Below are positions 7,816 through 27,867 of a stretch of DNA of 32,357 nucleotides, one piece after another. Numbering within the stretch: the first letter of the stretch is position 1; each line of letters starts with the position of its first letter. The notes under the pieces were generated by a model, which saw only the letters and a list, made by a program, of their open reading frames with translations, did no database searches and was not told the origin of the DNA. The stretch lies in IMG/VR virus record IMGVR_UViG_2675903665_000002; one strand, given 5' to 3'. The translations under genes and the position numbers were made by a program. Source of the stretch: a virus (taxonomy: Duplodnaviria > Heunggongvirae > Uroviricota > Caudoviricetes).

Positions 7816-7816
7816 T

Positions 7817-7832
7817 GTGACATGTCACACTA
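7817..7832. repeat. 16-mer GTGACATGTCACACTA, copy 1 (palindromic core TGTGACATGTCACA)
   Basis: Identical 16-mer recurs at 27852-27867. Both copies sit at a gene stop next to a - strand terminator, at the two boundaries of the structural operon. Confidence 0.6.
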
Positions 7833-8390
7833 CATTGATATATGATTCATAAAGTAGCTTAAAGATTTACTTCCCAGAAAAGAAATTTCTTTTCCTGGAT
7901 ATGTCGCAATAATTGAGCATGACTTATCCCCGTTAGAGGTAACAAATCCTGAATAACCTACTTGTTCTTTACCATTTTGTTGCTTGGCTAAAAAGTAGAG
8001 GTAGCTTATCTTTTTGCCCTCTGGGTAAAACTCTGCCAAACCAGTATCGGTGATTGAATATTTTATTCTCCCGCCTTGAGTAACGTTTTCCATCTCAAGT
8101 TTAGCTATGTCTTTTCTGTTGTATTCAGCATTGATTTTCCTTTCGAAATCAATGTTGTTTTCAAATGAGTAGGAAGCAACAGTCTGAATAGATGGGAACA
8201 CGTTTATCTGGATGCCTCCACAGTCGGCACAGGTATAAAGGTATGAATCAGATGGAATCCCCATAAAAGAAAACTGAGTTACCTTAAATTTATCGCTATC
8301 TCCAAAGTATTGAAGTTCGCATTTAACATTTTGCCCTGCAAAAGAAAATGCAGACATCAATATTGAAACAAAAAATATAATTGCCTTCAT
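7830..8390 (-). CDS. Secreted or lipoprotein-like accessory protein (186 aa), AT-rich
   Basis: N-terminal signal peptide MKAIIFFVSILMSAFSFAGQ. Last gene of the - strand operon. Composition differs from the neighbouring structural genes. Confidence 0.6.
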   Translation of the reverse strand: MKAIIFFVSILMSAFSFAGQNVKCELQYFGDSDKFKVTQFSFMGIPSDSYLYTCADCGGIQINVFPSIQTVASYSFENNIDFERKINAEYNRKDIAKLEMENVTQGGRIKYSITDTGLAEFYPEGKKISYLYFLAKQQNGKEQVGYSGFVTSNGDKSCSIIATYPGKEISFLGSKSLSYFMNHISM

Positions 8391-8392
8391 TA

Positions 8393-10945
8393 TTATTTAC
8401 CTAGCATGAACTGCGATGGTGGGATCAGAAAGTCGTTACCCTGCTCACGCTCAACACGGCGCTGATAACGCTCAAGAGAGCCTGGGTCAAGGGCATCTTG
8501 TATCCGGTTCAATATTAAACCATTCATCGCCGTACGAAGCCAGAACACGTTGAGGAATGGCGTATTGTCAAGTGCCGTGCGATACCAGTCACCCAAATCT
8601 GCATCCCCTCTCGTGGTCTGCTGGAGCAGCGTGATAATGCTGTCAGCGTTCGATGCTGCTGGCCCCATTAGCGACGTAACCGGCCCGGCCCCCATGCGGT
8701 TGACCTCGCCAAACATGAAGTCACCCAAGATGCCAAGACCGCCCCCCTGAGATGCGGCTGCGAGAAACGTCTTGGCATCTGCCGGGCGTGGTGTTTGCCC
8801 TTTCAGCATGAGTTTTGACTGCATGGAGATATAACCAAACATAGTCGCCCAGACAAAGAGGTTTGCAGCACCAAGGAAAGCCCCCTTCCCGTTACGTAGC
8901 AGCGCATTCGTCAGCGATCCGGTTTTCGACTCACCAAGCCCAGCAGGAATATAACCACGCCCGAATACTTCGCGTCCTAGTACGTTCTGCATGAAGCTTG
9001 CAGTGAACGATTTGTACTGACCAGCGAATCGTATTGCTTCCCCAGCCACCGTTCCTGGCACCGTGCCCATCTTCATAAACGCCTGCGTGCGATCGCCAGG
9101 CTCTGACATGGCGATATTCAGGCGGTCAAGGATGTAGCCGCGCAACTGCCCTTCCAATTGATCGCGTGCGTCAGCGATAGCGCGCTGCGTTGGTTTGATC
9201 CCCTTACTCTCTACATAACCGGCAATCACTTCGTCAGGCACGCCGCGGATGCCGCTGGTCGTCATGAACTTACGACCTTCGCTATCGGCCATGTCCATGT
9301 TGCGAAAAATTTCCCACTCACGTTCGCCAATACCGTGCAGATCCAGCACGCGTCGCAGGTCTTCCGGTAGCCGCGCATGAGACTGGTCAGCATTCTTTGC
9401 AAGCCAGTTGGTTATCATCATGGCGTTGCTGTTGCGACCGCTCTCGGTCCAGAAGTTCATGAGGTTGTACTTAAAGAAAAGCTGCTGCGCGCGACCAAGC
9501 TTTCCATTCAGCGTGTCATCACCAGATATGCGCCGGATGATTTCCTGCGTCATGGAGTCGGAATAAACTCCGATAGAGGAAAGGATCTCTTTCTGCTCCG
9601 CGCTGTTGTAACGCGTGAAGCGGCCTCTCATAGCACCAAGCAACGCCTGCATAAAATTCTGCCCTTGGTAGCGCATCTCGGTAGCGGCGATAGGCACGTC
9701 GTTAAACGATGAGATTACCGCGCCACCAAGTTGGCTCATACGCAACCAGCCGCGTACAGCCGCCGACGCATTGGCCCAGCCTACGCTGCCAGGAATATTT
9801 AGCGAGCCGTCAACCTGCGGCATTACGGTACGGTTAATGCGACGCACCTTCGTCATGTAGTCAGCCAACGCTGCCGGTCTTCCGGATTTGCTGATATCTT
9901 CAGCAATGGCGTCCGTCAGGTACTTAAACATGTTCTGTGGGTTAGTGCCCAGTACGCGCATCATGCCCGTTGTGCGGGCAGCGCTGTTTAAGCCACCAAA
10001 CAGCGCTTCTCGCAGGCTGCCGGTGCCGAATTGCTGGTTGTACTCGTGCCACGAGATACCATCTTTGAAGTGCAAAATTCGCTCTTGGCTGGCGCGTTTA
10101 GCTGCGTTCGCCGATCCCTTAAAGCCATTCATCCAATCGGGCTTTTCAGATGTAAGATGCACGCCGGAAGCCAGCCCGTTATAAATGTTACGCGTGAACT
10201 GCTCGCGGTCAGCCACGCCGTCAAAAGTGCGCTCATCAAGGCGCGGGAGAATAGCATTTCGCCATGCTTCATAACCTGCGGCGCGGATCTTCATGATGTC
10301 GTGTGACTGGCGCACTATATAGCCCGGCTCTTTGCGTATCCATGCCCCGGCGCGGTTCTCATCAATGCGCGCAGTTTCCTGCCATTTCATGATGATTTGT
10401 GCAGCGCTTACGGATTGCTTTGTCATACCGTCAGTTGACTGCCCGCGCCCTATGCGCCACATTGCATCGGCAATTTCCCGGTCATTGCTGCCGCTGGCGA
10501 TGAATTGCACCAGCCCGGCACGGTCAAAATCGTAGTTGATACCGGAATGATACTTGCCGCGCAGTTGCGCCACCTCCGAAGATACCGACCGGCGGGCGCC
10601 GGTACGCGCATCGTTGCGGCCAACCAGCATTGCTTCAAGCCCGATATCCGGGCGGTCTTTCCAGATAGTACGAAGCTCTCTAAGTCGTTGTGCGGCAATA
10701 CGGGCGTTGATTGCCTTATTGCGAGCCTCAATCTGTTTTGCCAGCATATCGGCATTGCTCAGTTCTTCCGCTGCGCGCATCGCGGCCTCTTCCAGAGACA
10801 GCGCCTCATTGGTCGCCAGAATTCGCCTAGTGGTGTCGTTCATGTCACGCACCAGCGACTCCATCTCATCGGAAGAAAGCTCGCGACCAGCGGCAGCATT
10901 TACACTGCGCTCGCACTGCGTCAAAAATTCGTTTGCTGCCATCAC
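8393..10945 (-). CDS. Large internal virion / DNA-ejection protein (850 aa)
   Basis: Position at the end of the internal-core protein block. Start overlaps the upstream stop (ATGA). Confidence 0.55.
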   Translation of the reverse strand: MMAANEFLTQCERSVNAAAGRELSSDEMESLVRDMNDTTRRILATNEALSLEEAAMRAAEELSNADMLAKQIEARNKAINARIAAQRLRELRTIWKDRPDIGLEAMLVGRNDARTGARRSVSSEVAQLRGKYHSGINYDFDRAGLVQFIASGSNDREIADAMWRIGRGQSTDGMTKQSVSAAQIIMKWQETARIDENRAGAWIRKEPGYIVRQSHDIMKIRAAGYEAWRNAILPRLDERTFDGVADREQFTRNIYNGLASGVHLTSEKPDWMNGFKGSANAAKRASQERILHFKDGISWHEYNQQFGTGSLREALFGGLNSAARTTGMMRVLGTNPQNMFKYLTDAIAEDISKSGRPAALADYMTKVRRINRTVMPQVDGSLNIPGSVGWANASAAVRGWLRMSQLGGAVISSFNDVPIAATEMRYQGQNFMQALLGAMRGRFTRYNSAEQKEILSSIGVYSDSMTQEIIRRISGDDTLNGKLGRAQQLFFKYNLMNFWTESGRNSNAMMITNWLAKNADQSHARLPEDLRRVLDLHGIGEREWEIFRNMDMADSEGRKFMTTSGIRGVPDEVIAGYVESKGIKPTQRAIADARDQLEGQLRGYILDRLNIAMSEPGDRTQAFMKMGTVPGTVAGEAIRFAGQYKSFTASFMQNVLGREVFGRGYIPAGLGESKTGSLTNALLRNGKGAFLGAANLFVWATMFGYISMQSKLMLKGQTPRPADAKTFLAAASQGGGLGILGDFMFGEVNRMGAGPVTSLMGPAASNADSIITLLQQTTRGDADLGDWYRTALDNTPFLNVFWLRTAMNGLILNRIQDALDPGSLERYQRRVEREQGNDFLIPPSQFMLGK

Positions 10946-12639
10946 ATCCCCCGGTTAATCATACAGGCGGCAAATGCCCGGAAAGCGTTGCTCATGCTAT
11001 TGTCGCTGGCGTCGGCACGAATATCATTGAGTTTCTGGCGCAACGTGGTCGCAAGATCAGGGTTATCGACAGCGATATCGTCAAGCAGGGCGTTACTCAG
11101 GTTGAGCTCGTTATCAAGGTCTGCAGCGGCAGCGGTAATTTCATGATCTGCCTTTTGCGTTTCTTGATAAACCCGATCGGCTGTTTCGCTTGCTGGGCGA
11201 GCCGTTTCATCAACCTGCCGTGCCGGGTTCTGTATGCGATGGATGGCGCGTTCACGCAGTGCCGGTTTGTGCAGTTCATAGAAGGGCTCAACATCTGGGC
11301 TACGTCCTTCCATCATGTGTGCCAGCGCAGCGCGATACGCCTGCTGGTTCACGTTCCAGTCAGCATCCCTGATGGCGCTTGCGGCAGTGCGAACTGCGCC
11401 AGCGACCGGCGACATCTGCATGCCGTCCAGGATCTGCTGCGCACGCTCGGAAATGGTGACTTTCAGGTCGTCTGGGATCTCACCGCGGGAAATCTGAGAC
11501 TGGCGCCAGCGCGCCTGCTCTGCTGTCGCGTTCTGCTCCAGCGATGTGTTGATCTCCTGATTGCGTGCAGCGATGGCGTCTTTCTCGGCCTGAATCTCTT
11601 TCAGTGCCCTAGAGCGCGCATCCTTAAACTTCATCCGCTGCCCCTGATACTTTTTGGTGCGCTGCTGCAGCGTCGCATCAAGCGAGTCAGCATGACGTTG
11701 ATTAGCCGCAAGCTCGGCACGCAGGTCGGCAACGTTACCGATCTGACCGCTCTGTAATTCCTGCTGGCGCGCCATATAGTCAGGAACCACGTCGTCATAA
11801 GCCCGGCTGTATGCGTAGCTCTCCGCTTCACTGGAAATGGCCGCCGCCAGATCTGCGTTAGCGCCAACCTCAGGGATATTCACGCCCGCCGGAATGTTGT
11901 CAGGCGTTATCACCGGGGTTGGCTGCGCATCGCCAGAAAACGCCGGGGACTCTCCCGTTGCAGCATCGGGAACGCGACGCGGTCGCACGATATCGGCGAT
12001 AAGGCCGCCGCCGGCATGCATTAGACCGCCAGCCATCGTGTTAAAGAAAGTACTTTCCAACGCGTTGCTATAGGTGAAGTCGTCACCTTCCGCCGCCGCT
12101 GCCAGCCCGGTAAGCGGCACGGTCACCACCGCCTGCGCTGCCCCCATGCGTGCACCAGCAACAAATCGCTCGCCAAATCGGCCAAGCACAGAAGCCGCCT
12201 TTGCTTCTCCAGCGAACGGAACCAGCGCCAGCGCCACGTTACCAGGATCTGCCATTGAACCAGCTAGGCTGGCTGCGAAATTAAGCGGCGTGGCTACCCA
12301 TCCGCTCGGTGCCGACATCGCGATCTGCTGGCGTGCCAGAGAATCTTTGCGTTCGGCAATAACATGATCGAGAAAAGCCTGCGTAACGCCAGAATCTGGC
12401 ACGTTTATGCTCTTTACGCCGTACTGCTTCAGGAGCTCATCCGCTTCCTGCTTACTGATAACTGTAGAGTTTGGGTCATTCGCCAGCGAGTCGGCCTGCG
12501 CAAAGCGGTAGCCGGACATGACCGGCCCCTCTTCAAATCCCTGCTTAAGGGAAGAAAGCAGCGATTCGCCAAGCCCTGCTGGCGCGTTGCCAATTGGCTG
12601 GTTAATTCCCTGTCCCGGATCATCTGTGTAAATTGGCAT
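10942..12639 (-). CDS. Internal virion protein (565 aa), Ala-rich with coiled-coil-like regions
   Basis: Synteny within the core-protein block; low-complexity Ala-rich composition. Confidence 0.5.
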   Translation of the reverse strand: MPIYTDDPGQGINQPIGNAPAGLGESLLSSLKQGFEEGPVMSGYRFAQADSLANDPNSTVISKQEADELLKQYGVKSINVPDSGVTQAFLDHVIAERKDSLARQQIAMSAPSGWVATPLNFAASLAGSMADPGNVALALVPFAGEAKAASVLGRFGERFVAGARMGAAQAVVTVPLTGLAAAAEGDDFTYSNALESTFFNTMAGGLMHAGGGLIADIVRPRRVPDAATGESPAFSGDAQPTPVITPDNIPAGVNIPEVGANADLAAAISSEAESYAYSRAYDDVVPDYMARQQELQSGQIGNVADLRAELAANQRHADSLDATLQQRTKKYQGQRMKFKDARSRALKEIQAEKDAIAARNQEINTSLEQNATAEQARWRQSQISRGEIPDDLKVTISERAQQILDGMQMSPVAGAVRTAASAIRDADWNVNQQAYRAALAHMMEGRSPDVEPFYELHKPALRERAIHRIQNPARQVDETARPASETADRVYQETQKADHEITAAAADLDNELNLSNALLDDIAVDNPDLATTLRQKLNDIRADASDNSMSNAFRAFAACMINRGM

Positions 12640-12640
12640 G

Positions 12641-15262
12641 TTATCGTCCTGATTGCTGGCCGTTCTGGAAAATGTTAATCAGGTTGTCGCGCTGACTTTC
12701 TGCGCTGTATTCCTTAGACTGTCCGGGAGTATATTTCACCGGAGTATCAATGAACTTGGTAATGCTGTTCCATACTGATCGGTTGGTTGTTCCCAGTTTC
12801 GCCAGATCGTTGAACGGCACCGTAATCGGGTTGCCGTCGGCACCGTTGACGATCAGCCCGTTGAGCATCAGGGTAAGTCCTGTTTCGTCGCTGTTGGTAA
12901 CCCACTGCGCATTATCACGAATGCGGGAGATACTCTGCTCACGGTTGACCTCATCAGGTAGCCTTGGGTCACCAATAAGCGGCATAATCTGATCTGCTGA
13001 CAGGTTTTTCAGATACGCATTGGCACCATCGTTAACGTCACGAATATCTATCCCTGCACGATTAGGTAGCCGCCAAGTGCCATTGGTCTGGTACTGCTCG
13101 CCGAGGATGTCCTGATACGCCTGTTTTGCTGCATCAGACGCCGACATTCCGCGCTGCATGTTGATGTAAGTAAGTCGTTTTCCCTGCTCGTTGAAGTTAT
13201 TCCACACGGCAGTGCCACCAGGCTGAACAACCATCGTGCCAGCAAAATCTTTCGATTGGTCATTCCATGACGAGTCGGCGCTATCCGCGTCGGTTTTCTC
13301 AAGACTGCCGCGTAAGTCAGCAGTTTTAACGCTACGGTTTTGCCAGAGCGCATTTGCCGCGCGCGGGTTCTCGGTAGCCATGACAACCTGCAACGCAGGA
13401 TAAGCGCTCTTCTGAACCTGCTGCATCACCTGATCCGAGTATTTGCCGAACGACTGCGCCACCGACTGAATGGCCTTAACGCTAGATTCCTGCGTGTTGT
13501 CAATACGCTGCAGTACATCATTGACCATGGACTCCGGTAAAACTTTTTTGCTCATTATCCCCAGGCGGTCTTTTTCAGACTGTATGCGGGAAACTAGGTA
13601 TTCACCAGATGAAGGGTCATTCAGGTACTGCTGGAATGCAGCCTGCACAACCGGAGAGTTTTGTTGCAGCCATGCCCCCGGATCCGCTTCCCGCGCCTTC
13701 AGTACCTGCCCAAGCTTGACCTTTGCCGATGCATAAAGCTCTGCTTTGTATTTAAAGTCAGGGTCGTTTTCCTGCGGTGCCATTGCCTGCACGGCGGCGG
13801 TACCCTGCTGGACGTTGCCCTGCATAATGGTCTGATAAACAGGTTGTAGCGTCATTGCCTGCTGGTATTGCTGGAAGGTTTTTTCCATCTGCAGGCGCTC
13901 GGCAGGCGCTGCCTGAAGCGGCATAACGGCGGCCCATTCGTGCGCTGAAATAGGCGTCACCTGCTTACCGGCCTCAATTTTGGATAGGTCGTCCTGCATT
14001 CGACTCTGTAGCGCAACGCGACCGGCTGAAGCCTGCATGTCGTACATGCCAGCAACCTTGCTCATCATCTGCGACTTTTTGTCCGGACTCATGGCGTTCC
14101 AGAATGGCTGTGCGATGAGGTTTTCCATCGTCGCAGATCCAGGAATAGCTCCAGCACTGCCAGTTACTTTTGCCACATAATTGCGCGTCTCGTCGTATGG
14201 GATAGCTGCGGCAAACTGGGCGTTACTGACTTCGCCTGTGCGCGGATCGCCAATCTGTTTAATCCAGCCGTCAACCTTTCCTGGGCCAGCGTTATAGGCA
14301 GCTACTGCCAGAACCGGGTTATTGTCGTATTTCTTCATCTGCGCGCCGAAATAAGCTTGCCCCAAGCGGGCATTATAGCGCGGGTCATTCAACCATTTAT
14401 CGCGGTCCCACGGCACGCCAGCAAGGCGGGCAGCTTCGGGGCCAGTATCTTCCGTCACCTGCGCTACGCCAACAGCGCCTTTTGGCGACACCAGAGGTGT
14501 TCCGTCCTTTCCGTACTGATTTCCGCCACTCTCCTGCCAGATTATTGCAGAGAATAACTGCGCCTCACTCGGTGTATCGGTTACCTCAATCTTGCCGTTC
14601 GGACCCATCATCTGTTGATACATCGGCACATACCACGCCTCCGCCGCACCGTTCGCGGCATTCTCGCGCCACGAAACCCAGTTCTGTTCGATCTCTTCCT
14701 GACTCTGGCCGTGGGCTTCGCCGTAAGCGATGATGCTATGATATGCCTTCAATCCTGCCTGGTTTGCCATTGTCGGGTTACGGAACTGCATCGATAGGTT
14801 TTTTAGTGTCGCATCCTGCATATCCGCCTCATACTGGCGAACCTGTCCTATTTCGTACCTCCCGGCCTGCGTAGTGAACTGAATGCGCTGCTGCTGCGCC
14901 TGCTGCATGAAAGCATTACGAGCCTGTTCATCCGGCAGCGACATAGCCAGTTGTTCGACCTGAGCATCAAACTGCTGCGTATACTCCTGACCTTTTCCAA
15001 TAGCATTTTTCCCTTTCAGGTTAAGCAATCCTGTTTCAGGATTATTCAGCAGATCACTGCTTATCTGACTGAGGTTAAGAGATGCCTCCTGAGCCAGAGC
15101 GATATTGGCACGCTGTTTTGCCTGACCAAAAACATCAATTGCCTCTGTCCCTGCCCGAACAAAAGCATCACCAATACCTGGCTGAGAAAACGTCTGCAAG
15201 CCTGCTGACTGAACTCCACGGCTCTGAACCTGACGGCCGGATACTGTTGGTACGACTGGCAT
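12641..15262 (-). CDS. Internal virion protein with lytic transglycosylase (SLT) domain
   Basis: Motif SAIIWQESGGNQ...AYNAGPGKV typical of soluble lytic transglycosylases. Start adjusted to ATG at 15262 (GGAGG SD, MPVVPTV...) rather than the ORF-track start at 15337. Confidence 0.7.
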   Translation of the reverse strand: MPVVPTVSGRQVQSRGVQSAGLQTFSQPGIGDAFVRAGTEAIDVFGQAKQRANIALAQEASLNLSQISSDLLNNPETGLLNLKGKNAIGKGQEYTQQFDAQVEQLAMSLPDEQARNAFMQQAQQQRIQFTTQAGRYEIGQVRQYEADMQDATLKNLSMQFRNPTMANQAGLKAYHSIIAYGEAHGQSQEEIEQNWVSWRENAANGAAEAWYVPMYQQMMGPNGKIEVTDTPSEAQLFSAIIWQESGGNQYGKDGTPLVSPKGAVGVAQVTEDTGPEAARLAGVPWDRDKWLNDPRYNARLGQAYFGAQMKKYDNNPVLAVAAYNAGPGKVDGWIKQIGDPRTGEVSNAQFAAAIPYDETRNYVAKVTGSAGAIPGSATMENLIAQPFWNAMSPDKKSQMMSKVAGMYDMQASAGRVALQSRMQDDLSKIEAGKQVTPISAHEWAAVMPLQAAPAERLQMEKTFQQYQQAMTLQPVYQTIMQGNVQQGTAAVQAMAPQENDPDFKYKAELYASAKVKLGQVLKAREADPGAWLQQNSPVVQAAFQQYLNDPSSGEYLVSRIQSEKDRLGIMSKKVLPESMVNDVLQRIDNTQESSVKAIQSVAQSFGKYSDQVMQQVQKSAYPALQVVMATENPRAANALWQNRSVKTADLRGSLEKTDADSADSSWNDQSKDFAGTMVVQPGGTAVWNNFNEQGKRLTYINMQRGMSASDAAKQAYQDILGEQYQTNGTWRLPNRAGIDIRDVNDGANAYLKNLSADQIMPLIGDPRLPDEVNREQSISRIRDNAQWVTNSDETGLTLMLNGLIVNGADGNPITVPFNDLAKLGTTNRSVWNSITKFIDTPVKYTPGQSKEYSAESQRDNLINIFQNGQQSGR

Positions 15263-15807
15263 TATAATCCTCCGGGTAATCTGGTTCCTGCTGCTGCCCC
15301 GATTGGCGCAGGGGTGCTTTGAGTAAACGGACTCCACGTCCCACCAAACATCTGGTACGCACCGTATGCCTTCAGAGGCGCAGTGAGCAATGTTGTTGCT
15401 GCTCCCACATTCCCCTGTTTACGGGCTGAACTGGCTTCTGCTTTATAGTTGGCAGCCTGAACCTGATAACCGTAAGCCTCGCGTTGCGCGTTATTCACCG
15501 TCGTCAGAGAATCAAGAGCGCCAAACTGGGCAGTGTCGCCAAATATATCCAGCGCGTTACCTGTAGATAAATCAGCGCCGGTAGCCCCCATTGTCGCCGC
15601 CTGTGTACCAAGCCGCTGTCGGGTCTCTCTGCGCCGTTGCTCAGCTTCAGCGTTACCTCTGTTTATTGCATCATTTGCCTGAGCTGTGGCTATATCTGCG
15701 TTCGCTTCTGCAACCTTCGAGGCATACTTTCCCTGTTGGTACTGGGTGTATGCCTGAATGCCACTCATGGCGAGCATTGCGCCACCAGCAATAACCGGAT
15801 CGCACAT
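15262..15807 (-). CDS. Small internal virion protein (181 aa), hydrophobic N-terminus
   Basis: Position between the tail-tubular-like genes and the large core proteins, analogous to T7 gp14-type proteins. Confidence 0.45.
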   Translation of the reverse strand: MCDPVIAGGAMLAMSGIQAYTQYQQGKYASKVAEANADIATAQANDAINRGNAEAEQRRRETRQRLGTQAATMGATGADLSTGNALDIFGDTAQFGALDSLTTVNNAQREAYGYQVQAANYKAEASSARKQGNVGAATTLLTAPLKAYGAYQMFGGTWSPFTQSTPAPIGAAAGTRLPGGL

Positions 15808-19347: not shown

Positions 19348-19368
19348 AAGTTTCTATACTCCTGCAAT

Positions 19369-19388: not shown

Positions 19389-19403
19389 TCTCATCCGCGA
19401 GGC

Positions 19404-19748: not shown

Positions 19749-19749
19749 C

Positions 19750-20187
19750 TTAACCAGTTACTTTTGAGCGGATCGGATACGGCGTATTGGCATCAACATC
19801 AAGATTGATACCCGCAGTGAATTTGCCGGCCGTTAGTGGGCCAGTTGCGACGGAGTAGTTAACACGCAGATATCGCTGAACACCGGCAGGCACCTTTGCA
19901 GAAACAACTCGTTTACCTGCTGTCAGGGTAGCCTTTGCCAGTGCGCCACTATCATAAATAGTGGACCATGAGCTGTTATTCTCACTCGTCTGCAACTGGA
20001 TGTTTACAGTTGCCTCACCACTTGCCGTGGCGGCTTCGTTAACCAGCACCCAAAACTCAAGCGGATAACCCACGCCGATATCGCGACGGTTTCCATCAAT
20101 TGGACCGAGATCGATTACGTCAGTAGAAGCCGCGGTATTCGTAACCGCCTGAGCTTCGGAGAACATCAACAGTTTGTCGGTGATCAT
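19750..20187 (-). CDS. Hypothetical head-associated protein (145 aa), possible decoration or minor capsid protein
   Basis: GGAG SD upstream; immediately downstream of the major capsid gene. Confidence 0.45.
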   Translation of the reverse strand: MITDKLLMFSEAQAVTNTAASTDVIDLGPIDGNRRDIGVGYPLEFWVLVNEAATASGEATVNIQLQTSENNSSWSTIYDSGALAKATLTAGKRVVSAKVPAGVQRYLRVNYSVATGPLTAGKFTAGINLDVDANTPYPIRSKVTG

Positions 20188-20238
20188 CTTCTTTCTCCAT
20201 TAGTGGGTCTGTTACGACCCACAGGTTAATAACAGGCG

Positions 20239-21231
20239 TTACACCACGCGGGCTTCTGTTTCCAGAAGCGCATCAGTTTCACGGATTGGTACACCACGGA
20301 ATGAAGTCCACCACTCGCCTTCTGTCTCTTTTACGCTGATCGCCAGAGATGTTTTCTCCAGAGATTGCAGATCAAGAGCCTGGCCTACAGTGCGGTTCAT
20401 GTAGAACACCGGGCGACCCATGCCACGATTTGGAATGCGATGCAGTGCTTTAACCATCAACTTCGCAATATTTGCGGCAGAGGAAGGTTCTGAAAGATTG
20501 CTGACATCGATGTTTGCAATGCGAACAACATAACGCCAGTCACGCAGAGCAAGTCCGTTGTCCCATTTGTAATGGGTACGGTAGCCTTCGTACTTGCCGC
20601 CATTAGCATCTTCCAGTGTCACCTGGCCTTTATCTTCCATCTGAATGCCAGCCTTCTGCCCTTTCGGGAAGATGCCATGCACTGTGTTTTCGCCCCACAC
20701 CACTAACCAGATTGAAGTGTTATCTGTACCCGTGCCACCAGCATCAATGATGTTCTGAGCATTACCCGCAGACAGGCTGGAATAGCGGGAGGACAGTCCC
20801 ATAAACTGCTGAGGGTTAACGCTGGAATCACCGTAAAACAGCGTCTGCGCCATCGCCTGATTCATCGCTTCAATAAATGCTCGGTCTTCAGACAGGCGGA
20901 ATTCGGCAGTATTACCGTTCAGATCAGCCAGAGACTTATCGACTTCAGCATAGGTTTCCAGCATGCCAATGGAATCAGTGACCTGCACCGTTGTTGATTT
21001 GCTCGGTTGTACGCCATAGTTCAGCAAACGCCAGGTAGCGGAAGGCAAACCAGAACGAATGGTGGTTCGGTGTCCGGTAGGAAGGTTTCCTTCAACAAAA
21101 GGCATATCCTGAAGGATTGGGTTGGTTTGACTGAGAAGCTCGATAATCTTATCGACTTTCCCGTTTGGATCGACGCGCTTACCCCAGTCAGCCAGCGTTA
21201 GCGCAGTTAAGCCTTTAACAGCCATTGTCAT
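20239..21231 (-). CDS. Major capsid protein
   Basis: 330 aa, directly downstream of an acidic scaffold-like gene and the portal gene; typical size for an HK97-fold coat protein. Confidence 0.75.
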   Translation of the reverse strand: MTMAVKGLTALTLADWGKRVDPNGKVDKIIELLSQTNPILQDMPFVEGNLPTGHRTTIRSGLPSATWRLLNYGVQPSKSTTVQVTDSIGMLETYAEVDKSLADLNGNTAEFRLSEDRAFIEAMNQAMAQTLFYGDSSVNPQQFMGLSSRYSSLSAGNAQNIIDAGGTGTDNTSIWLVVWGENTVHGIFPKGQKAGIQMEDKGQVTLEDANGGKYEGYRTHYKWDNGLALRDWRYVVRIANIDVSNLSEPSSAANIAKLMVKALHRIPNRGMGRPVFYMNRTVGQALDLQSLEKTSLAISVKETEGEWWTSFRGVPIRETDALLETEARVV

Positions 21232-21239
21232 TTCCTCTC

Positions 21240-21941
21240 TTATTTGCCATAGAGCACTTCGGCCGCACTACGCTGGCCTTCATTACCACCGGTGACCATG
21301 CCATCTTCAGACATCGCCTTTCCGATTTTCACGAACGTTTTGACCAGATCAGGGTGATTACCCAGCCCGGTGGTGTTCAGATATTCTTTGAGTTCAGGTG
21401 TCCCGAACTGGTCGAGCGCACGCTGTGCGGCGCTAAGGTTAGAAATCAACTTGTCGCCACCGATTTCTTTGTCAGCTTTTACATCCGCAGCCCACTGCTC
21501 GGTTGTTTTCTGCCAGGCTTCTGCCTGGCGCTGCTGAACACCTGCCAGAATCTTCGGATAAGCATCAACCAGCTTTTGCGCTTGCTCGTTGGTCAGGTTA
21601 AGTTCTCGCGCCACCGGCTCGAATTCCTTCAACGCTTCTGTATCCAGCTCTACGCCTTCGGCAGCCTGAAACTCGTACTTCTCCGGCGCACCATCCGGTT
21701 TATCGCCGTCCTTTTTTTCACCCTGCTTATCGCTTTCAGGCTTTTTGTCATCAGCAGGTTTATCGCCATCAGCAACAGGTTGCGGCTTATCACCTTCTTG
21801 TTGTGATGGATCACCAACTGGAGCAGGGTTATCACCTGCAGGCGCTGACGGTTCTGACGCAGCCGGAGCTGCTCCACCATCGACTGGTTGCTCATTGCAA
21901 AGACGGCGATACAGCAAACGCTCAAATAAATTCATGATCAC
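21240..21941 (-). CDS. Scaffolding protein
   Basis: 233 aa, highly acidic with a Pro/Asp/Lys-rich low-complexity N-terminal half; located between portal and capsid. Confidence 0.7.
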   Translation of the reverse strand: MIMNLFERLLYRRLCNEQPVDGGAAPAASEPSAPAGDNPAPVGDPSQQEGDKPQPVADGDKPADDKKPESDKQGEKKDGDKPDGAPEKYEFQAAEGVELDTEALKEFEPVARELNLTNEQAQKLVDAYPKILAGVQQRQAEAWQKTTEQWAADVKADKEIGGDKLISNLSAAQRALDQFGTPELKEYLNTTGLGNHPDLVKTFVKIGKAMSEDGMVTGGNEGQRSAAEVLYGK

Positions 21942-22234
21942 TCCTGTTCACTGGCCTCTTTGGCCATCTTCAAATACTGTTCAGGGCAATGCGCCATAAC
22001 GCGCTGAAACAGTTCCAGCGCCAGATTGCGTTGCCCCTCATTAAATGCCATTGCCATAGCGTCCATCGGTGAGATAGCGGAAAACACACGGCCTTTCTCC
22101 AGCACCGACCAGACAACGCGACGCCCCTGTTCACTGCTCATGACAAAGCGAATGTCATCAATTTCACGCTGTGCCATGTCACGTTGCTTACGGGCGTTTT
22201 CTTCTTTCAGTTGATCATCTTCGTAATCTGTCAT
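21938..22234 (-). CDS. Hypothetical small head-module protein (98 aa)
   Basis: Overlapping start/stop with both the portal and scaffold genes. Confidence 0.45.
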   Translation of the reverse strand: MTDYEDDQLKEENARKQRDMAQREIDDIRFVMSSEQGRRVVWSVLEKGRVFSAISPMDAMAMAFNEGQRNLALELFQRVMAHCPEQYLKMAKEASEQE

Positions 22235-23910
22235 TGTGATTGCCCACCCTGACCACTAACTGCATTCGCCATAGCTGACAAAACACTCGGATCCGAAGTT
22301 TTAGCTTCGCTTAGCGTCTTGGCACCCTGTGCCGCCGCCATCCCCATCGCCATCATTTGTTGCTGCTGTTGTTGCTGTGCCCGTTGCTGGCGAGCCTGCT
22401 CAACCTGTTCCTGCGGAACAATGACGGTTGGAGACACTCCGGACATATCAGCGAATGCATCGATCGCCTGATCAACGTTGAGTTTGTCGAGAGCTTCTGG
22501 TTTCGCTTGCGCAAGTTGACCAATGAAGTTAACCGTGGACGCCAGACTGGACAGGCCGATAGACTTCTGCGCCTGAGCCATGACGGAAATGTATTCGACC
22601 TTCAGGGGCATGCCTTCCATCGCGTCAGGCGGTGGCGGCAGCATGTTTTTGCGCACCATCATCGAGAAAGCGCGGTCAATGAGAGGATTAAGACATTCGT
22701 CGTTCAGACGCTCCAGAACCGGCCCCAACATCAGAAGTTTTTCTTCTTTCATTTCGATCACCGCTTCAACAGGCATCGAGCGGGTATTGATGTTCTGCAA
22801 CATCATGAACAGATCGACAAAGTAGGCGCTGTTAATGATTTGACGAGTGTCCTGAATGTCTGCCACCAAATCTGCTGTACTGGGGTTAACCAGATAAGCA
22901 GGCCTGAAGCCATCCTGACCAGTAATCTGATCGATATACGTGATGTCGCCAGGAAGAAGGGAGGCGCGCTGATTCTTGAGGGAAGTCGGAGCAACCATCG
23001 GCGGATTGGTGGCTTTATCAATCAACTGCGACTTGCGCTTCTGGAGAAGCTGCAATGCCTTAACAGGTCCAAGCGCCAGCATACCCGGGCATGATGATCC
23101 ATAAACATCTTCGCCGTTAACTTCCCAGCGCGGAGCCATAATTGGAAACTCATCGAATCCGGACTCACGCAACAACTTGTCGTTATCGCCACCAACCTCG
23201 TAATAAACCGATTTGAATGGCTTGTTCTTGCTATCCAGCTTCGATGTATCGCGGTCAATGTTCGGGTAAACCGAATGCATCACTTCGATCCACTTCTCGT
23301 AGGTGCCGCTTTCCCACATGCTTTTTACGGATTCGCTGACGTTATTTAGCCCGAACTCCTGAACAAGCTGACGAACAGTCATAGAGAACTTGCGAAAACA
23401 GGTGTCAACACTGCCACGAGGTGAGTTAGCCAGGTAGTAACTGCCTATCGGGAATGGCATTGTGCGAATGATGTCCTCGTCATCCTCCAGCACTGCCATT
23501 GCACCAGTGCTGTATGTGCCGAGGCTTCCGTATAACTGCGGAAGAGACTGGTAGAGATTCGACTTATTGAACATATCGTTCATGCGGTTCTGAACTGCCT
23601 CAAGCCACAACTTAACAGGGCCATAATCCATCATTTCAGGATCTGGCGTAGCCAGGCGAAACCACGGACGCGCGGGGCTTGTGATGCCTGACATCATGCC
23701 GCTGGCGAGAGTGCGCGCCGCCATAGTCCCGGTCGAATCAATAATGCGTGTATTGCGCCGATCGTTACGGTTGGCCTCAGAAGTCAGAAAGCGGGAACCA
23801 CGCGGGTTGATGTAATCACTCAACTCGCGCCAGTGCGGCTCGAACGACTGACGCTCGCTTTCAAGTTGTGCGAACTGTTTGTTCAATCGCTCTTTAGTTG
23901 TTTCCGCCAT
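22231..23910 (-). CDS. Portal (head-to-tail connector) protein
   Basis: 559 aa. N-terminal region resembles the podovirus head-to-tail connector family. Gln-rich C-terminal tail. Sits upstream of scaffold and capsid. Confidence 0.8.
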   Translation of the reverse strand: MAETTKERLNKQFAQLESERQSFEPHWRELSDYINPRGSRFLTSEANRNDRRNTRIIDSTGTMAARTLASGMMSGITSPARPWFRLATPDPEMMDYGPVKLWLEAVQNRMNDMFNKSNLYQSLPQLYGSLGTYSTGAMAVLEDDEDIIRTMPFPIGSYYLANSPRGSVDTCFRKFSMTVRQLVQEFGLNNVSESVKSMWESGTYEKWIEVMHSVYPNIDRDTSKLDSKNKPFKSVYYEVGGDNDKLLRESGFDEFPIMAPRWEVNGEDVYGSSCPGMLALGPVKALQLLQKRKSQLIDKATNPPMVAPTSLKNQRASLLPGDITYIDQITGQDGFRPAYLVNPSTADLVADIQDTRQIINSAYFVDLFMMLQNINTRSMPVEAVIEMKEEKLLMLGPVLERLNDECLNPLIDRAFSMMVRKNMLPPPPDAMEGMPLKVEYISVMAQAQKSIGLSSLASTVNFIGQLAQAKPEALDKLNVDQAIDAFADMSGVSPTVIVPQEQVEQARQQRAQQQQQQQMMAMGMAAAQGAKTLSEAKTSDPSVLSAMANAVSGQGGQSQ

Positions 23911-23924
23911 TTCAATGACTCCGG

Positions 23925-24131
23925 TTACTGACCAAGCAGCGTTTTACCGCTGGTATTAGCGGTTGATGTGTCGCCCTGAGAACCGGTAAGCAGCGTAGAA
24001 CTACGACCAGCAGCAGCGCGACGGCGACGTGTTTCTTCGTCGCGGGCATCAACAACGGCGGCATCCTGCTCCTGTGGTGCTGCCTGAACTTCTGGTGTTG
24101 CAGGCACTGATGGTGAGCTACCCATGCACAT
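23925..24131 (-). CDS. Small hypothetical protein (68 aa) upstream of the portal gene
   Basis: ATG at 24131 with GGAG SD 8 nt upstream. The alternative overlapping frame 23912..24151 looks less protein-like. Confidence 0.35.
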   Translation of the reverse strand: MCMGSSPSVPATPEVQAAPQEQDAAVVDARDEETRRRRAAAGRSSTLLTGSQGDTSTANTSGKTLLGQ

Positions 24132-24199
24132 ATCAATGACTCCGTACGCAATTAAATTATTACCAATTTAACCACATATGATTTATTTATCGTAGAAGG

Positions 24200-24236
24200 T
24201 TGACATTTAACGCGTGAATTATTACCTTTCGGGTAA
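24200..24236 (+). promoter_or_regulatory. Promoter (TTGACA at 24200-24205) with perfect operator for the tRNA transcription unit
   Basis: TTACCtttcgGGTAA at 24222-24236 positioned where a -10 element would be expected. Confidence 0.55.
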
Positions 24237-24558
24237 CCAAAGAGCTCATTCCGGTTACTAACCTGACTGGCTTGTCGTTAAATTAAACAGGTGGAGTGAG
24301 CTTTTATTTTGAGCAGTACGGCGTATGGCACATGCGCCGATAGCGGTCTGGATACGTTTAAGGGGCACCCTCCCTTGCTCGGGCAAACGAACCAGGTAGC
24401 CGGAATGTGCAAGTCGAGCGGTTTTATTCCGCGCACGGGGATTCACCATCCCGGCGATTCGGTGTGACGCCTCGGAAGAGACGAGGGTACAACGATGAGA
24501 GCATTTATGGAGCCGCGACAAAGTGTGGCGCCTTAACAGGCTAAGTGCTCTCAGCGTT

Positions 24559-24635
24559 GTGGCATTAGCTCAGTTGGACAGAGCAACCGCCTTCTAAGCG
24601 GTTGGTCGCAGGTTCGAATCCTGCATGCCACGCCA
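24559..24635 (+). tRNA. argU: tRNA-Arg (anticodon UCU), argU-like
   Basis: 77 nt. 7-bp acceptor stem GTGGCAT/ATGCCAC, D-arm GCTCAGTTGGACAGAGC, anticodon arm ACCGC-CTTCTAA-GCGGT (anticodon TCT), T-arm GCAGG-TTCGAAT-CCTGC, discriminator G plus CCA. Near-identical in arrangement to E. coli argU. Confidence 0.95.
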
Positions 24636-24678
24636 GAATCACGCCTAAGGACCGTGATGCCAGAAGTTCCAGGTGCTT

Positions 24679-24721
24679 GGCGGTGATGGTTTCCCTTGAA
24701 GGACTATCACCGCCCTTTTTA
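24679..24721 (+). terminator. Intrinsic terminator downstream of the tRNA
   Basis: GGCGGTGAT...ATCACCGCC stem followed by CTTTTTA. Confidence 0.65.
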
Positions 24722-24798
24722 CAGCAGGACGCCATTGCGATGACTTCATGCTGTAAACCCGTACAGCCACGGAAGGCATAACTCATTGCTTCCAGTTC

Positions 24799-24822
24799 GC
24801 CCGGTTCGCCGGGCATTTTTTT
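24799..24822 (+). terminator. Intrinsic terminator (GCCCGG-TTCG-CCGGGC plus T8)
   Basis: 6-bp GC stem with TTCG tetraloop followed by ATTTTTTT. Confidence 0.8.
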
Positions 24823-24838
24823 GCTTGATGACCGCAAA

Positions 24839-24857
24839 TTACCTTAAAGGTATAATC
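24839..24857 (+). promoter_or_regulatory. Near-consensus operator (TTACCttaaaGGTAT, 9/10) fused to TATAAT, directly upstream of the membrane-protein gene
   Basis: Same TTAAA spacer as the 6668 site. TATAAT at 24851-24856. Confidence 0.5.
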
Positions 24858-25676
24858 ATGAAAAACTTCAAGGTAATTAGCATGTTTGAATCGTTTAAAG
24901 AGCTGTTTTTATCTACTGCCAATACTGCCGTGAATCGAGCCAAAAACCCTGTGCTTGGTGCTTTTGTTATGTCCTGGTGCGCCTTCAACTGGAAATCAAT
25001 TCTTTATCTATTTTTTAGCAAATCAAACATAATAGATAAAATTTCATATATCTCAGATAACAGCACATGGAAAACTGTTATGTTTTATCCATGCTTATCT
25101 GTAATTGCTATCTGCTGCCTATTACCATGGGTAAACAATATCATTAACGTATGGCAAGCAAAGCCTCTTGATAATAATGACTCAATCGAAAATCACCTGA
25201 AGGCAAGAAAAATCCAGCGTGAAACCAGACTGCAGAGGTTATTGGCTAAAAAAGATGTTACATACGACAAAGTTAAGACTGGCGCGGAAAAAGACATCCA
25301 AGAGATGAAAGAAGAGATTATTCGATCAAAGAATAGTATGGGGGAATTGACTGCTGAGTTGAAAGCTAAAGATGACGAATTGAGATCCGCCAGTGCTCAG
25401 TTAGCAGCTCTAAATCATTCATTAAAAGAGATATCGGAAACTCTTGGAAGAATGAATGAGGCATATAAGACCCTCCAAAATGATTTCGACGAATACAAAC
25501 TCAAATACCCTGAAAAATCTCAAATAAAAAGTCTTGCACTTGGCAACGGCCAAACAATTAGCAACTTTTTGGAGCAACACAACTTATCCGGATTAAAATC
25601 TGGTAAGCCAGACGTTTTTAATAACTTTGGTGTTCTATCTGGATTATCAGGTTTCGAGGATAAAAATAAAGACTAA
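24858..25676 (+). CDS. Accessory membrane protein: two predicted TM helices followed by a long coiled-coil; AT-rich
   Basis: Hydrophobic segments VLGAFVMSWCAFNWKSILYLFF and VMFYPCLSVIAICCLLPWV, then a charged heptad-like region. Opposite strand to the structural genes. Start may be ATG 24882 if TATAAT is the -10. Confidence 0.6.
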   Translation: MKNFKVISMFESFKELFLSTANTAVNRAKNPVLGAFVMSWCAFNWKSILYLFFSKSNIIDKISYISDNSTWKTVMFYPCLSVIAICCLLPWVNNIINVWQAKPLDNNDSIENHLKARKIQRETRLQRLLAKKDVTYDKVKTGAEKDIQEMKEEIIRSKNSMGELTAELKAKDDELRSASAQLAALNHSLKEISETLGRMNEAYKTLQNDFDEYKLKYPEKSQIKSLALGNGQTISNFLEQHNLSGLKSGKPDVFNNFGVLSGLSGFEDKNKD

Positions 25677-27148
25677 GCATATGGATCGTACTCGGTAAGC
25701 GCCTTGCCTTGCTGGTTCTGCTGCCCGGGAAGTCGCAGGCGCTTCGACACCGGGAAAGCAAACGTCAGCAGCAGCGCATCGCCTTTACCCGGCGAACGCC
25801 CAAGTCGCTCTTTGATATCTTCCTTCGGTTCGATAACGATTTTACCGTCCACTCGAACTTTGTACTCTGCCGCCGACAGGTCGTCTGCAGTTTCCTGGTC
25901 ATCCAGCATGCCGCCCAGCCTCAGCCATGTCTTACATGAGTTGAACATCTCCCCACGCTTGTTGAGCATCTGCGGGTCAGTAGACGCGCCACCGAACGGA
26001 ACAAGTTGCCATGTACGACCCCAGCCGTCACCGATTGACTTCAGACCAGTTCCGTAACCGAAGTCGATGAACACTGCGTCAGCCTGGTACTGGTCTTCAA
26101 AGTCAGCGATACGCTTCGCCATAATCAGATCGTCAGTGGTCTTGTTGCCAGTCCACAGCACCTTACTGTGCAGCCCCTGCCGCAGGTATATCACAGCGTC
26201 ATCAACGCCTGAGTATGCCGGGTCAACGCCGATTATCACCGGAGCATGTGCAACCTGCGCAGCGGTGACCACCCGTTTCATTGCCTCGTCAGTAAGTCCG
26301 GTAGGGATAAACTGCAATTCAGATGCATCCGGGAATATGCCGCGCACACGGATTTTAACGAAGTCGCTGTCTTCCCCGTAGTCATCAACCCATTTCTGCA
26401 ACTGCTGTTTGTTGGTGCCTTCCACCGTCCGGCTGTCAATCTGCGCAGTTTTCCAGCGGTGTTTATATTTGCGGAAACATTCGCGGAAACGTCCGGTATT
26501 ACGCGTCGGGTTTCCGAACGCCACCCAGATAATCTCAGTGTCTTCGTCCGTTAGCGCACCCTCGGCAACTTCCCACACCAGATCCGCAATGTTCGACGCT
26601 TCATCGAATACCACGATGATGCGTTTGCGCTCGTTGTGTAGTCCGGCGAATGCCTCAGTGTTGTGCTCAGACCAGGGTATTGCGTCAGCTCGCCACCGCT
26701 TGTCGTGTCCAGGATCATTGCTGTACATCGCGGTAGCGGTACAGGTAAACCAGTCTTTCGTGATAGCAAGGTTCGACCACTTGATAATTTCCGGCCAGGT
26801 CTTCGTTCGTAGCTGGTTGTCGGTGTTGGCGGTCACCACAACCTTACAATCCTCGCAAGTGGACATGCCCCAGTTGATCAGCATTGAGATGAATGCGGAT
26901 TTACCAATACCGTGACCCGAAGCGCGTGCCAGCATAAGCGGCTGATAGCGCGTCTCTGGATTCTGCAGGTGATCACGTATCTCTCGGAACGCATCAGCCT
27001 GCCACTGACGTGGACCGGTGGCATGTGCCAGTTCAGTCCCATCTTCCCCCCACGGGAACGCATAGAGGGCATAGCCAAGCGGATCGTGAGTGAACCCTGC
27101 AATATCCTCGATTAACTGCTCTTCAGGAGATAACGCTGTATCTGTCAC
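25673..27148 (-). CDS. Terminase large subunit
   Basis: 491 aa. Walker A-like SGHGIGKS in the N-terminal ATPase region and an acidic nuclease-type C-terminal region. Start overlaps the terS stop. Confidence 0.85.
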   Translation of the reverse strand: MTDTALSPEEQLIEDIAGFTHDPLGYALYAFPWGEDGTELAHATGPRQWQADAFREIRDHLQNPETRYQPLMLARASGHGIGKSAFISMLINWGMSTCEDCKVVVTANTDNQLRTKTWPEIIKWSNLAITKDWFTCTATAMYSNDPGHDKRWRADAIPWSEHNTEAFAGLHNERKRIIVVFDEASNIADLVWEVAEGALTDEDTEIIWVAFGNPTRNTGRFRECFRKYKHRWKTAQIDSRTVEGTNKQQLQKWVDDYGEDSDFVKIRVRGIFPDASELQFIPTGLTDEAMKRVVTAAQVAHAPVIIGVDPAYSGVDDAVIYLRQGLHSKVLWTGNKTTDDLIMAKRIADFEDQYQADAVFIDFGYGTGLKSIGDGWGRTWQLVPFGGASTDPQMLNKRGEMFNSCKTWLRLGGMLDDQETADDLSAAEYKVRVDGKIVIEPKEDIKERLGRSPGKGDALLLTFAFPVSKRLRLPGQQNQQGKALTEYDPYA

Positions 27149-27741
27149 TGATTACCATCCTGACGTTCTTTGAGTCGCTTCCTGGCTGCTGCTATGCGAT
27201 CAGCAATTGTCACATTCACATTAACATCCAGACGTTCTTTGAATGCGTTGACATCAACATGCTTACCAATCAGCTCAAGGTTCTTCACCTTGTCAGGCCA
27301 TTTAATTTTTTTGAGGATTGTCTCTATTGAATCCTCGTTCATGTTCATGATGGTCGATGACAGATCAAAGCCACTAAGCGTAGTGCGCCAGATTTTCGGC
27401 CACTCACGGATTGGTTTAAGGCTCCCATCGTCGTTGAGGATGTCGATCACGTCCATCTGGTCGATCTCCACCAGGCGCATGAGAACGTAATCAGCACTGA
27501 CACGCATTCGTTTGTTGCGCTCCTCCATCAACTCGGCAATCCGTTTCTGAATGCGTTCATCGCGCATCATGACACTGGCTTTAACTGCCGCTGTATTTGG
27601 GGAGAATCCTGCGTTAATCGCAGCCTGAGTCTGGTTTTCAGGCGTTTTGATGTATGACTGGCAATAAGCCTCCTGCATTGCTGTGAGCGGCTTAAATTGC
27701 GTTGATTTGCGTTTATAGGTTTTAGGTTCAGCAGGCATCAT
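27145..27741 (-). CDS. Terminase small subunit
   Basis: N-terminal LTAMQEAYCQSYIKTPENQTQAAINAGFSPNTAAVKA... resembles the Terminase_2-type small subunit. Start set at ATG 27741 (MMPAEP..., GGTGG SD) rather than the TTG at 27819. Confidence 0.75.
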   Translation of the reverse strand: MMPAEPKTYKRKSTQFKPLTAMQEAYCQSYIKTPENQTQAAINAGFSPNTAAVKASVMMRDERIQKRIAELMEERNKRMRVSADYVLMRLVEIDQMDVIDILNDDGSLKPIREWPKIWRTTLSGFDLSSTIMNMNEDSIETILKKIKWPDKVKNLELIGKHVDVNAFKERLDVNVNVTIADRIAAARKRLKERQDGNQ

Positions 27742-27781: not shown

Positions 27782-27783
27782 TG

Positions 27784-27810
27784 CAAAATAAAGCCGCCAT
27801 AGTTGGCGGC
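27784..27810 (-). terminator. Intrinsic terminator on the - strand immediately upstream of the terS promoter region
   Basis: GCCGCC-atagtt-GGCGGC hairpin followed on the - strand by TTTATTTTG. Confidence 0.6.
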
Positions 27811-27851
27811 AGTATTCAAAATCCATCAAATTCATCATGCATAATCTACTC

Positions 27852-27867
27852 GTGACATGTCACACTA
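27852..27867. repeat. 16-mer GTGACATGTCACACTA, copy 2 (palindromic core GTGACATGTCAC)
   Basis: Identical to 7817-7832. Overlaps the stop codon of gene 27860..28201 in a different frame context from copy 1, so conservation is at DNA level. Confidence 0.6.

Follow-up and report, generated by a model that had tools for sequence, protein, structure and literature searches.

What recognises a short palindrome that stands in identical form at both ends of the packaging and morphogenesis genes of a podovirus, and what might it be for? The question is raised by IMG/VR virus record IMGVR_UViG_2675903665_000002, a stretch of 32,357 nucleotides (the window, by which we mean that whole stretch), which megablast and PHROG scans place among the epsilon15/phiV10-like podoviruses of the genus Uetakevirus. 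An earlier note on this DNA had pointed out two identical 16-mers at the boundaries of the structural operon and had offered three readings of them: a binding site for a late regulator, for which the Cys-rich protein of a neighbouring open reading frame (ORF) was a candidate, an antitermination element, or a module-exchange boundary. Here we argue that the palindrome is probably the cognate DNA-binding site of that Cys-rich protein, a member of the phrog_536 family with a predicted ribbon-helix-helix (RHH) domain and zinc ribbon; the case is built on the co-occurrence of site and gene across phages. This distribution points not to a device of the late operon but to one example of a widespread phage protein-site pair.

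Two copies of a palindrome bracket the late operon

The 16-mer GTGACATGTCACACTA is present in exactly two copies on the + strand, at 7817-7832 and 27852-27867, and nowhere else in the window, as the earlier note had claimed. With up to three mismatches, nothing further turns up but the palindrome overlapping itself; dinucleotide shuffles give an expectation of 0.2, none of 100 shuffles reaches the observed count, and chance origin of the pair is excluded. The 16-mer is not the right unit, however: its trailing ACTA is replaced by other bases in epsilon15 and phiV10 while the 12-bp core GTGACATGTCAC is conserved, so the meaningful unit is the palindrome of 12-14 bp and the identity of the two copies past the core is incidental.

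The context described for the two copies, in which each overlaps the stop codon of a - strand gene and is followed by a - strand intrinsic terminator, is recovered by the ORF list and by terminator scans (Table 1). At site 1, the stop TAG of ORF 7830..8390 (7830-7832) forms the last bases of the 16-mer, the core lies 1 nt past the stop and the gap between core and terminator is 0 nt. The hairpin has no U-tract on the + strand, the existing one serving the late strand only; the late operon converges at this point with accessory genes transcribed oppositely, and the phiV10 record annotates a terminator at the same position. At site 2, the core contains the TGA of the Cys-rich ORF (27860-27862) as its minus-strand positions 2-4; this ORF is the final one of the early-right operon. 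The terminator is found 41 nt downstream of the core with terS (27738..27145) next, and it is kept in epsilon15-type spacers and annotated in epsilon15. The two sites therefore bracket the late operon, site 2 being placed between the last early-right gene and the region that holds the terminator, a putative promoter and terS. A one-mismatch palindrome, GTGCCATGTCAC, is also seen at 22171-22182 inside a small ORF (21938..22234), and TL-2011b carries the same variant at 16873.

The motif travels with the regulator gene

Homologues of the Cys-rich protein, identified by tblastn at 30-67% identity, are encoded by phages with unrelated virion modules, and all the homologue-bearing phages that were fetched carry the motif, which can be generalised as GTGAC-N2-GTCAC. 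Three perfect copies are present in the Pectobacterium myovirus ZF40, including one that lies 2 nt past the stop codon of the homologue; the phage-plasmid N15 also has three, of the form GTGAC-(TG/CA)-GTCAC, and gene 46 has its stop codon on one of them; the Vibrio siphophage K303 has three as well, and a P2-like Yersinia phage has one perfect and one near-perfect copy. A variant that differs by one base, GTGACCGGACAC, is present in an Aeromonas phage in three identical copies, of which one is 25 nt upstream of the homologue. In the reverse direction, 27% of the 120 IMG/VR fragments listed as carrying the 14-bp form TGTGACATGTCACA encode a family member within the same ~9-kb fragment. Lambda has neither the regulator gene nor the motif. 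The motif also emerges from an unbiased scan for 5-mer inverted repeats (gap 0-4, at least three per genome), which yields GTGAC with a gap of 2 in epsilon15, ZF40, N15 and K303. The same scan picks up a second dispersed inverted repeat in N15, GCGACC-N2-GGTCGC, in four copies (33481, 35932, 41126 and 45563) that are presumably its known dispersed partition (centromere) sites.

Prophages give the numbers that carry the association. Across 27 prophage loci from 27 species, 490 kb in all, the motif is found 38 times where 0.47 copies are expected, and the runner-up 5-mer inverted repeat reaches 6. Its placement is also constrained: the motif overlaps the TGA of the gene, in the same register, at 20 of the 27 loci and begins 3 nt after the stop at two more, a placement that spans 30-99% protein identity within the set; the stop of N15 gene 46 overlaps the motif in that very register. 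Spacing is strict, a spacer of 2 being represented by 61 copies in 877 kb and spacers of 0, 1 and 3-7 by 0-1 copies each. The half-sites never change, any of several dinucleotides (AT, GC, AG, CA, AC, CC) may stand at the centre and the flanks prefer Y...R symmetrically. Comparative support for the Cys-rich protein as the candidate binder is thus strong: the motif tracks the gene family and usually sits on its stop codon.

What is not supported is an element tied specifically to a "late regulator" or to the structural operon. In ZF40 and N15, gene and motif are accompanied by the phages' own Q-like antiterminators, and the motif copies are found in early or immunity regions and within coding sequences. 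ZF40-like phages are a case in point: two copies flank the cI-cro immunity region at a distance of 2.1-2.5 kb (5125 and 7622 in ZF40) and both are intragenic, one in an early-left ORF of 97-117 aa and one in a cII-like gene; the two proteins are unrelated, and both copies encode C-D-M-S. These 12-mers are 100% conserved amid coding flanks that are only ~60-70% identical, which indicates selection on the DNA itself. A fixed inter-site distance for looping was considered and rejected: the ~2.2-2.5 kb that recur in epsilon15-like and ZF40-like phages are not seen in N15, K303 or the Aeromonas phage.

The hosts in which the family was seen are Enterobacterales, Vibrio and Aeromonas, with one alphaproteobacterial exception. 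This exception, Limoniibacter endophyticus sequence NZ_BMZO01000013.1 (52 kb, 50.7% GC), encodes an N15-gp46-like protein with the motif on its stop codon, and is probably an N15-like phage-plasmid contaminant. A further arrangement is observed in prophages of Citrobacter, Pseudocitrobacter, Erwinia, Kluyvera and Rosenbergiella, where the regulator gene and palindrome are followed by a sigma70 promoter with a perfect LexA box (TACTGT-N8-ACAGTA). In some of these prophages an umuD-like gene comes next, and in three of six, 6-7 bp separate the end of the palindrome from the -35 hexamer downstream.

Sites are kept at fixed positions among epsilon15-like phages

A search of related phages at the positions equivalent to the two window sites, as the earlier note had proposed, finds the motif in epsilon15, PAT1, SPN9TCW and TL-2011b, where the core is perfect at both positions, and in most IMG/VR relatives. 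The Salmonella phage epsilon15, in which the terS/terL DNA is ~80-85% identical to the window where it matches, has three perfect copies: at 39612 (on the gp49 stop), at 2142 (27 nt past terL) and at 19517 (at the end of gp18, abutting the terminator). PAT1 and SPN9TCW have copies at all three positions, the post-terL copy of PAT1 reading GTGACAGGTCAC; TL-2011b has copies at two of the three, and phiV10 keeps site 1 intact and has a 1-bp variant at site 2. The regulator gene of SPN9TCW is N-terminally altered, and all three sites are still present; no Uetakevirus without the gene was found for comparison. Equivalents of site 1 are located at 3438 in PAT1, 19663 in SPN9TCW and 32282 in TL-2011b. 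Site 1 is kept in 70 of 80 IMG/VR relatives; among 79 close ones, site 2 is perfect in 75 and the post-terL copy is found in ~60.

The layout is constant in this lineage: stop codon, palindrome, 0-45 nt and then an intrinsic terminator. The post-terL copy fits this layout if read on the reverse strand, as the end of a variable moron gene. The window itself has lost this third copy, the hairpin and the palindrome being replaced by a reverse-strand cassette (phrog_4780; Table 1).

The regulator is predicted to combine a ribbon-helix-helix domain with a zinc ribbon

The phrog_536 family includes epsilon15 gp49, phiV10 p55 and N15 gp46. Clustered at 50% identity, this small family makes up 212 clusters in a set of 1.84 billion representatives; its members mostly have 105-130 aa and are spread over podo-, sipho- and myoviruses, P2-like phages and N15-like phage-plasmids. 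From N to C terminus, an alignment of 60 sequences shows a basic helix (AERKxxQRxR), a strand-like segment, two helices and a CxxC...CxC...C module. The regulator protein has no significant sequence match in Pfam, NCBIfam or the PDB, the NCBIfam model PRK11675 reaching only E 0.004-0.07, far under its cut-off; structure prediction from a shallow alignment gave a pLDDT of 67 and no fold matches, and a structure search of BFVD returned only a fragment of the same family. Profile comparison by hhalign of the 60-sequence alignment with the YbfE family (PF01402 RHH_1) gave a probability of 94.4% (E 8.6e-8, 57 columns), the match covering arm, strand, helix and helix. An AF2 monomer computed with a deep alignment has a pLDDT of 94.3, with an extended segment at 21-30 and helices at 31-43 and 53-75. 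By this profile match and this model, the protein is an N-terminal RHH domain followed by a Cys4 zinc ribbon and a short C-terminal helix.

Genomic setting

The features of the window that bear on the two sites are collected in Table 1.

Table 1. Sites, terminators and genes in and around the late block of the window
Feature	Position	Strand	Remarks
Site 1, 12-bp palindrome GTGACATGTCAC	7817..7828		Symmetric to 14 bp, TGTGACATGTCACA = 7816-7829; distal end of the - strand late operon
Site 1 intrinsic terminator	7799..7816	-	AGGCCGC-TTTC-GCGGCCT then TGTTTTT; ends the late operon
Site 2, 12-bp palindrome GTGACATGTCAC	27852..27863		~110 nt upstream of terS
Site 2 intrinsic terminator	27793..27810	-	GCCGCCA-ACTA-TGGCGGC then TTTATTTT; between the Cys-rich regulator gene and terS
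Predicted binding-protein gene	27860..28201	-	112 aa from ATG at 28198; phrog_536 "transcriptional regulator"
8-codon mini-ORF, M-H-DEFDGF-stop (MHDEFDGF)	27816..27842	-	Between site 2 and its terminator; conserved
Extended -10-like TGGTATTAT	27773-27781	-	Just upstream of the terS ATG; overlaps the dyad below
Operator-like dyad TTACCACAACGGTAA	27759-27773	-	Just upstream of the terS ATG
Late packaging/morphogenesis block between the two sites	7830..27738	-	Collinear with TL-2011b gp21-gp38 and epsilon15 gp1-gp18
terS	27145..27738	-	ATG at 27738
terL	25673..27148	-	
Replacing cassette ORF, phrog_4780	24786..25676	+	264-296 aa; overlaps the terL stop codon
Portal	22231..23910	-	
850-aa virion protein	8393..10945	-	
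186-aa ORF	7830..8390	-	Distal end of the late operon

The spacer between site 2 and terS has features of its own. The stop codon of the mini-ORF is 3-5 nt ahead of the terminator stem, and prophages of Superficieibacter and Scandinavium have the peptide as MTDEFDGF or MRDEFDGF, the changes being synonymous or neutral; the epsilon15-type spacer lacks it. Mini-ORF and terminator may together form a leader-peptide or attenuator arrangement ahead of the packaging genes. Closer to terS, the extended -10-like sequence could be read as a promoter, and the dyad that it overlaps matches a "repressor" binding site annotated at epsilon15 12-27, an annotation that is the depositors' prediction. The epsilon15 record annotates such sites (ATTACC-N4-5-GGTAAT) before terS, gp3 and gp20, a distribution that suggests possible direct repression of late units by the prophage repressor.

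Beyond the late operon, comparison with the TL-2011b map shows that window 1-7793 holds convergent accessory genes and then early-left genes. The order is a membrane protein (7560..7793), a YafO-like toxin (7038..7550) and Ant/Bro (5914..6594), and it continues with a DNA methyltransferase, RecT, RecE and a CI-like repressor (1136..1720). Missing from the window are the tailspike, lysis and integrase genes that TL-2011b and epsilon15 have; the 32-kb element looks deleted or defective, or else a permuted partial assembly.

Discussion

We propose that the family site, Y-GTGAC-N2-GTCAC-R, would be bound by the small protein that is encoded just upstream of site 2, presumably as a dimer on each site given the two-fold symmetry of the DNA and the RHH fold. 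There are 1-3 sites per phage genome, one nearly always on the stop codon of the regulator gene itself and the others at the ends of transcription units or modules. Once bound, the protein could serve to delimit these units and modules, as an architectural or boundary element, perhaps by blocking or insulating transcription where the intrinsic terminator is one-directional, or by bridging sites like MatP. A site that is retained while its neighbours are swapped would end up as a sharp mosaic junction. Of these steps, recognition of the site by the neighbouring protein is the likely one; a boundary or bridging function specifically is a guess, and a doubtful one.

Several observations weigh against this proposal. 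Among the 120 IMG/VR fragments listed as carrying the 14-bp form of the palindrome, 88 have no family gene within the ~9 kb of the fragment. The RHH strand residues vary across the family although the half-site is constant, so specificity must come from the conserved basic N-terminal helix (R9, R14) and not from a classical RHH read-out. Adjacency to a terminator is confined to the epsilon15-like lineage. Site 1 is wholly missing in nine relatives and the post-terL site is missing in the window; individual sites are therefore dispensable. Finally, sites are seldom at recognisable promoters and some are within coding sequences: a classical repressor or activator role is thus not evident, and a boundary, roadblock or architectural role is favoured.

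The same junctions could be read the other way round, the palindrome being mainly a recombination or module-exchange "linker" at the 3' ends of cassettes, with a partner protein that is irrelevant or that aids synapsis. As a description, the module-exchange boundary of the earlier note is borne out among Uetakeviruses: at site 1 and after terL, homology between relatives ends within 0-8 nt of the palindrome. Among 80 relatives, the membrane-protein gene and terminator block at site 1 is joined to at least seven unrelated sequences, which begin 0-3 nt past the palindrome in 70 of these relatives, homology stopping at its inner edge in 9; GenBank phage matches end at window 7828, the final base of the core. 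After terL, at least seven different reverse-strand cassettes start 4-8 nt past the palindrome. Phage Chlobot has only the regulator gene in common with the window, with homology from 27867, and many different genes end as a stop codon followed by the palindrome. Identity is nevertheless unchanged across the palindromes of ZF40-like immunity regions, and other copies lie within coding sequences and in N15 repA. Twelve base pairs is also very short for homologous exchange, no dedicated recombinase co-occurs, and any conserved island between variable genes would gather mosaic junctions secondarily. Protein recognition accounts better for a dyad that is perfect, whose half-sites never vary and whose centre is free, and which is tightly linked to a DNA-binding protein; we regard exchange as the main role of the palindrome as unlikely.

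The remaining explanations bring in RNA, a promoter or a host protein. As RNA, the palindrome would form a hairpin (GUGA-loop-UCAC) bound by the Arg-rich N-terminus of the protein for N/nut-like read-through of the terminators that follow. Such a role would suit the epsilon15-like copies, which precede an intrinsic terminator by 0-45 nt on a strand that is transcribed, the conserved Arg-rich helix (AERKxxQRxR), and the late transcript of epsilon15, which would need to read through the gp18 terminator to reach the tailspike gene. But the hairpin is weak, with 4 bp at -1.2 kcal/mol, and the Aeromonas variant forms none; this 12-mer is asymmetric and occurs in both orientations among co-directional genes. 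Changes are single substitutions, none of them compensatory, and the stem is invariant from Vibrio to E. coli phages. The post-terL palindrome comes after, not before, the hairpin on the late strand, the core of the protein is an RHH DNA-binding fold by prediction, and ZF40 (gp25) and N15 (gp40) already encode Q-like antiterminators; the RNA-level antitermination element of the earlier note is thus very improbable. Equally hard to sustain is a promoter reading, in which GTGACA would be the -35 hexamer of a constitutive late-leader promoter laid out like lambda Q-PR'-tR'. Candidate pairs can be written at site 2 on the - strand (GTGACA-18-CATGAT, 9/12) and at site 1 on the + strand (GTGACA-18-TATGAT, 10/12), the order of regulator gene, terminator and terS is like the late control region of lambda, and a conserved mini-ORF precedes the terminator. 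Promoter-like matches are, however, at or under the number expected from shuffles, and the -10 partner is not kept in other lineages. The site 1 "promoter" would be directed antisense into the operon, copies within genes, or in phages of unrelated layout, cannot be -35 elements, and the regulator has no similarity to Q proteins, no Q-like family match being found for it. We consider this the most remote of the explanations weighed here. A host factor, chiefly MatP, could instead bind the sites, so that the phage recruits or titrates the Ter-organising system of its host and its own protein is not the binder. The half-sites GTGAC/GTCAC are those of E. coli matS, GTGACRNYGTCAC (GTGAC-RNY-GTCAC, 13 bp), the target of the RHH protein MatP (PMC6907758, PMC3603311), and the motif-bearing phages seen here have hosts (Enterobacterales, Vibrio, Aeromonas) that all fall in the bacterial group in which MatP has been studied (PMC11564523). 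Against this, the spacing is strictly 2 bp and the matS spacing of 3 bp is at chance level in the 877 kb of phage genomes (1 copy vs 0.84 expected), and prophages are reported to avoid matS altogether (PMC3603311). Nor would binding by MatP account for a motif that keeps its place on the stop codon of one particular phage gene while the encoded proteins range over 30-99% identity, and we give this possibility very little credence.

Other candidates were rejected more directly. A genome end or cos site was suggested by the phiV10 record, which starts in the middle of site 2; it does so only since the depositors numbered from after the p55 stop, and the site has a 1-bp variant there. The operator of the prophage repressor is a different motif, as annotated in epsilon15. 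The site of CRP is TGTGA-N6-TCACA, the LexA box is CTGT-N8-ACAG and the P2 Ogr site is TGT-N12-ACA; all three were rejected on spacing by inspection, and the LexA boxes downstream of the palindrome in other prophages are separate elements.

If the pairing of palindrome and phrog_536 protein is real, it would constitute a widely distributed protein-DNA pair whose recognition sequence is predictable genome-wide from sequence alone. It would give a function to epsilon15 gp49, phiV10 p55 and N15 gp46, which are now "hypothetical" or generic regulators, and may explain why some intergenic 12-mers are invariant amid swapped surroundings and why mosaic junctions of temperate phages can be so sharp. 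A literature search, which did not take in the epsilon15 genome paper (Kropinski 2007), found no paper on the 12-mer or on a phage matS- or MatP-like system, and the protein-site pair is apparently previously undescribed.

How does this pair compare with known systems? The RHH regulators (CopG/Arc/MetJ), of which the YbfE "LexA regulated protein" family (PF01402) is closest by sequence, have the same layout of basic arm, strand, helix and helix, and share with it a short dyad-symmetric DNA site. The phage family differs in that no curated model matches it above threshold and in its extra C-terminal zinc ribbon; its 12-bp dyads are single and kilobases apart rather than arrayed at its own promoter, and the strand residues vary while the site is constant. 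The likeness to lambda Q/PR'-tR' lies in a regulator gene placed just upstream of a terminator that precedes the packaging genes. The window protein lacks a Q-like fold, however, a second site stands at the far end of the operon, and the genomes of ZF40 and N15 hold genuine Q-like genes in addition to this gene and site. The modular theory of Susskind and Botstein placed boundary "linker" sequences at the mosaic junctions of lambdoid phages. The palindrome is likewise a short conserved sequence that, at site 1 and at the post-terL position, stands exactly where homology begins or ends; it differs from such linkers as a perfect dyad with a co-inherited protein, conserved also where there is no junction.

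The comparison with MatP and matS goes further. The 5-bp inverted half-sites are identical in the two systems, MatP and the candidate binder both have an RHH domain after a basic helix, and in both the sites are sparse, dispersed and not placed at promoters. The hosts of these phages coincide with MatP-bearing bacteria, a coincidence to which database bias possibly contributes. MatP also bridges sites in vitro (PMC8053113). The phage site is nevertheless one base shorter, 12 bp with a strict 2-bp spacer where matS has 3 bp, and by sequence the regulator is not a member of the MatP family: E. coli MatP matches PF06303 and PF17414, the regulator matches neither, and hhalign gives a probability of 0.25% for its family against MatP. 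The phage protein lacks the N-terminal four-helix bundle and has a C-terminal Cys4 zinc ribbon in place of the coiled coil, and its system is carried by phages, which have 1-3 sites in ~40 kb, including one on the regulator's own stop codon. A matS copy that is one base shorter raises the question of whether the Ter-organising system of the host is used, mimicked or deliberately avoided by phages. We speculate that temperate phages of MatP/MukBEF bacteria could have a private, orthogonal "mini-MatP/matS", in which the RHH-zinc-ribbon protein bridges or marks two to three genome positions, an idea that we think rather improbable as it stands. If it were true, the shorter sites would insulate the phage system from host MatP, and the phage chromosome would be organised into loops or insulated modules (packaging, morphogenesis, immunity). 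The protein could then interfere with the action of the host SMC complex (MukBEF) on phage DNA, and synapsis of identical sites on co-infecting genomes could drive precise modular exchange.

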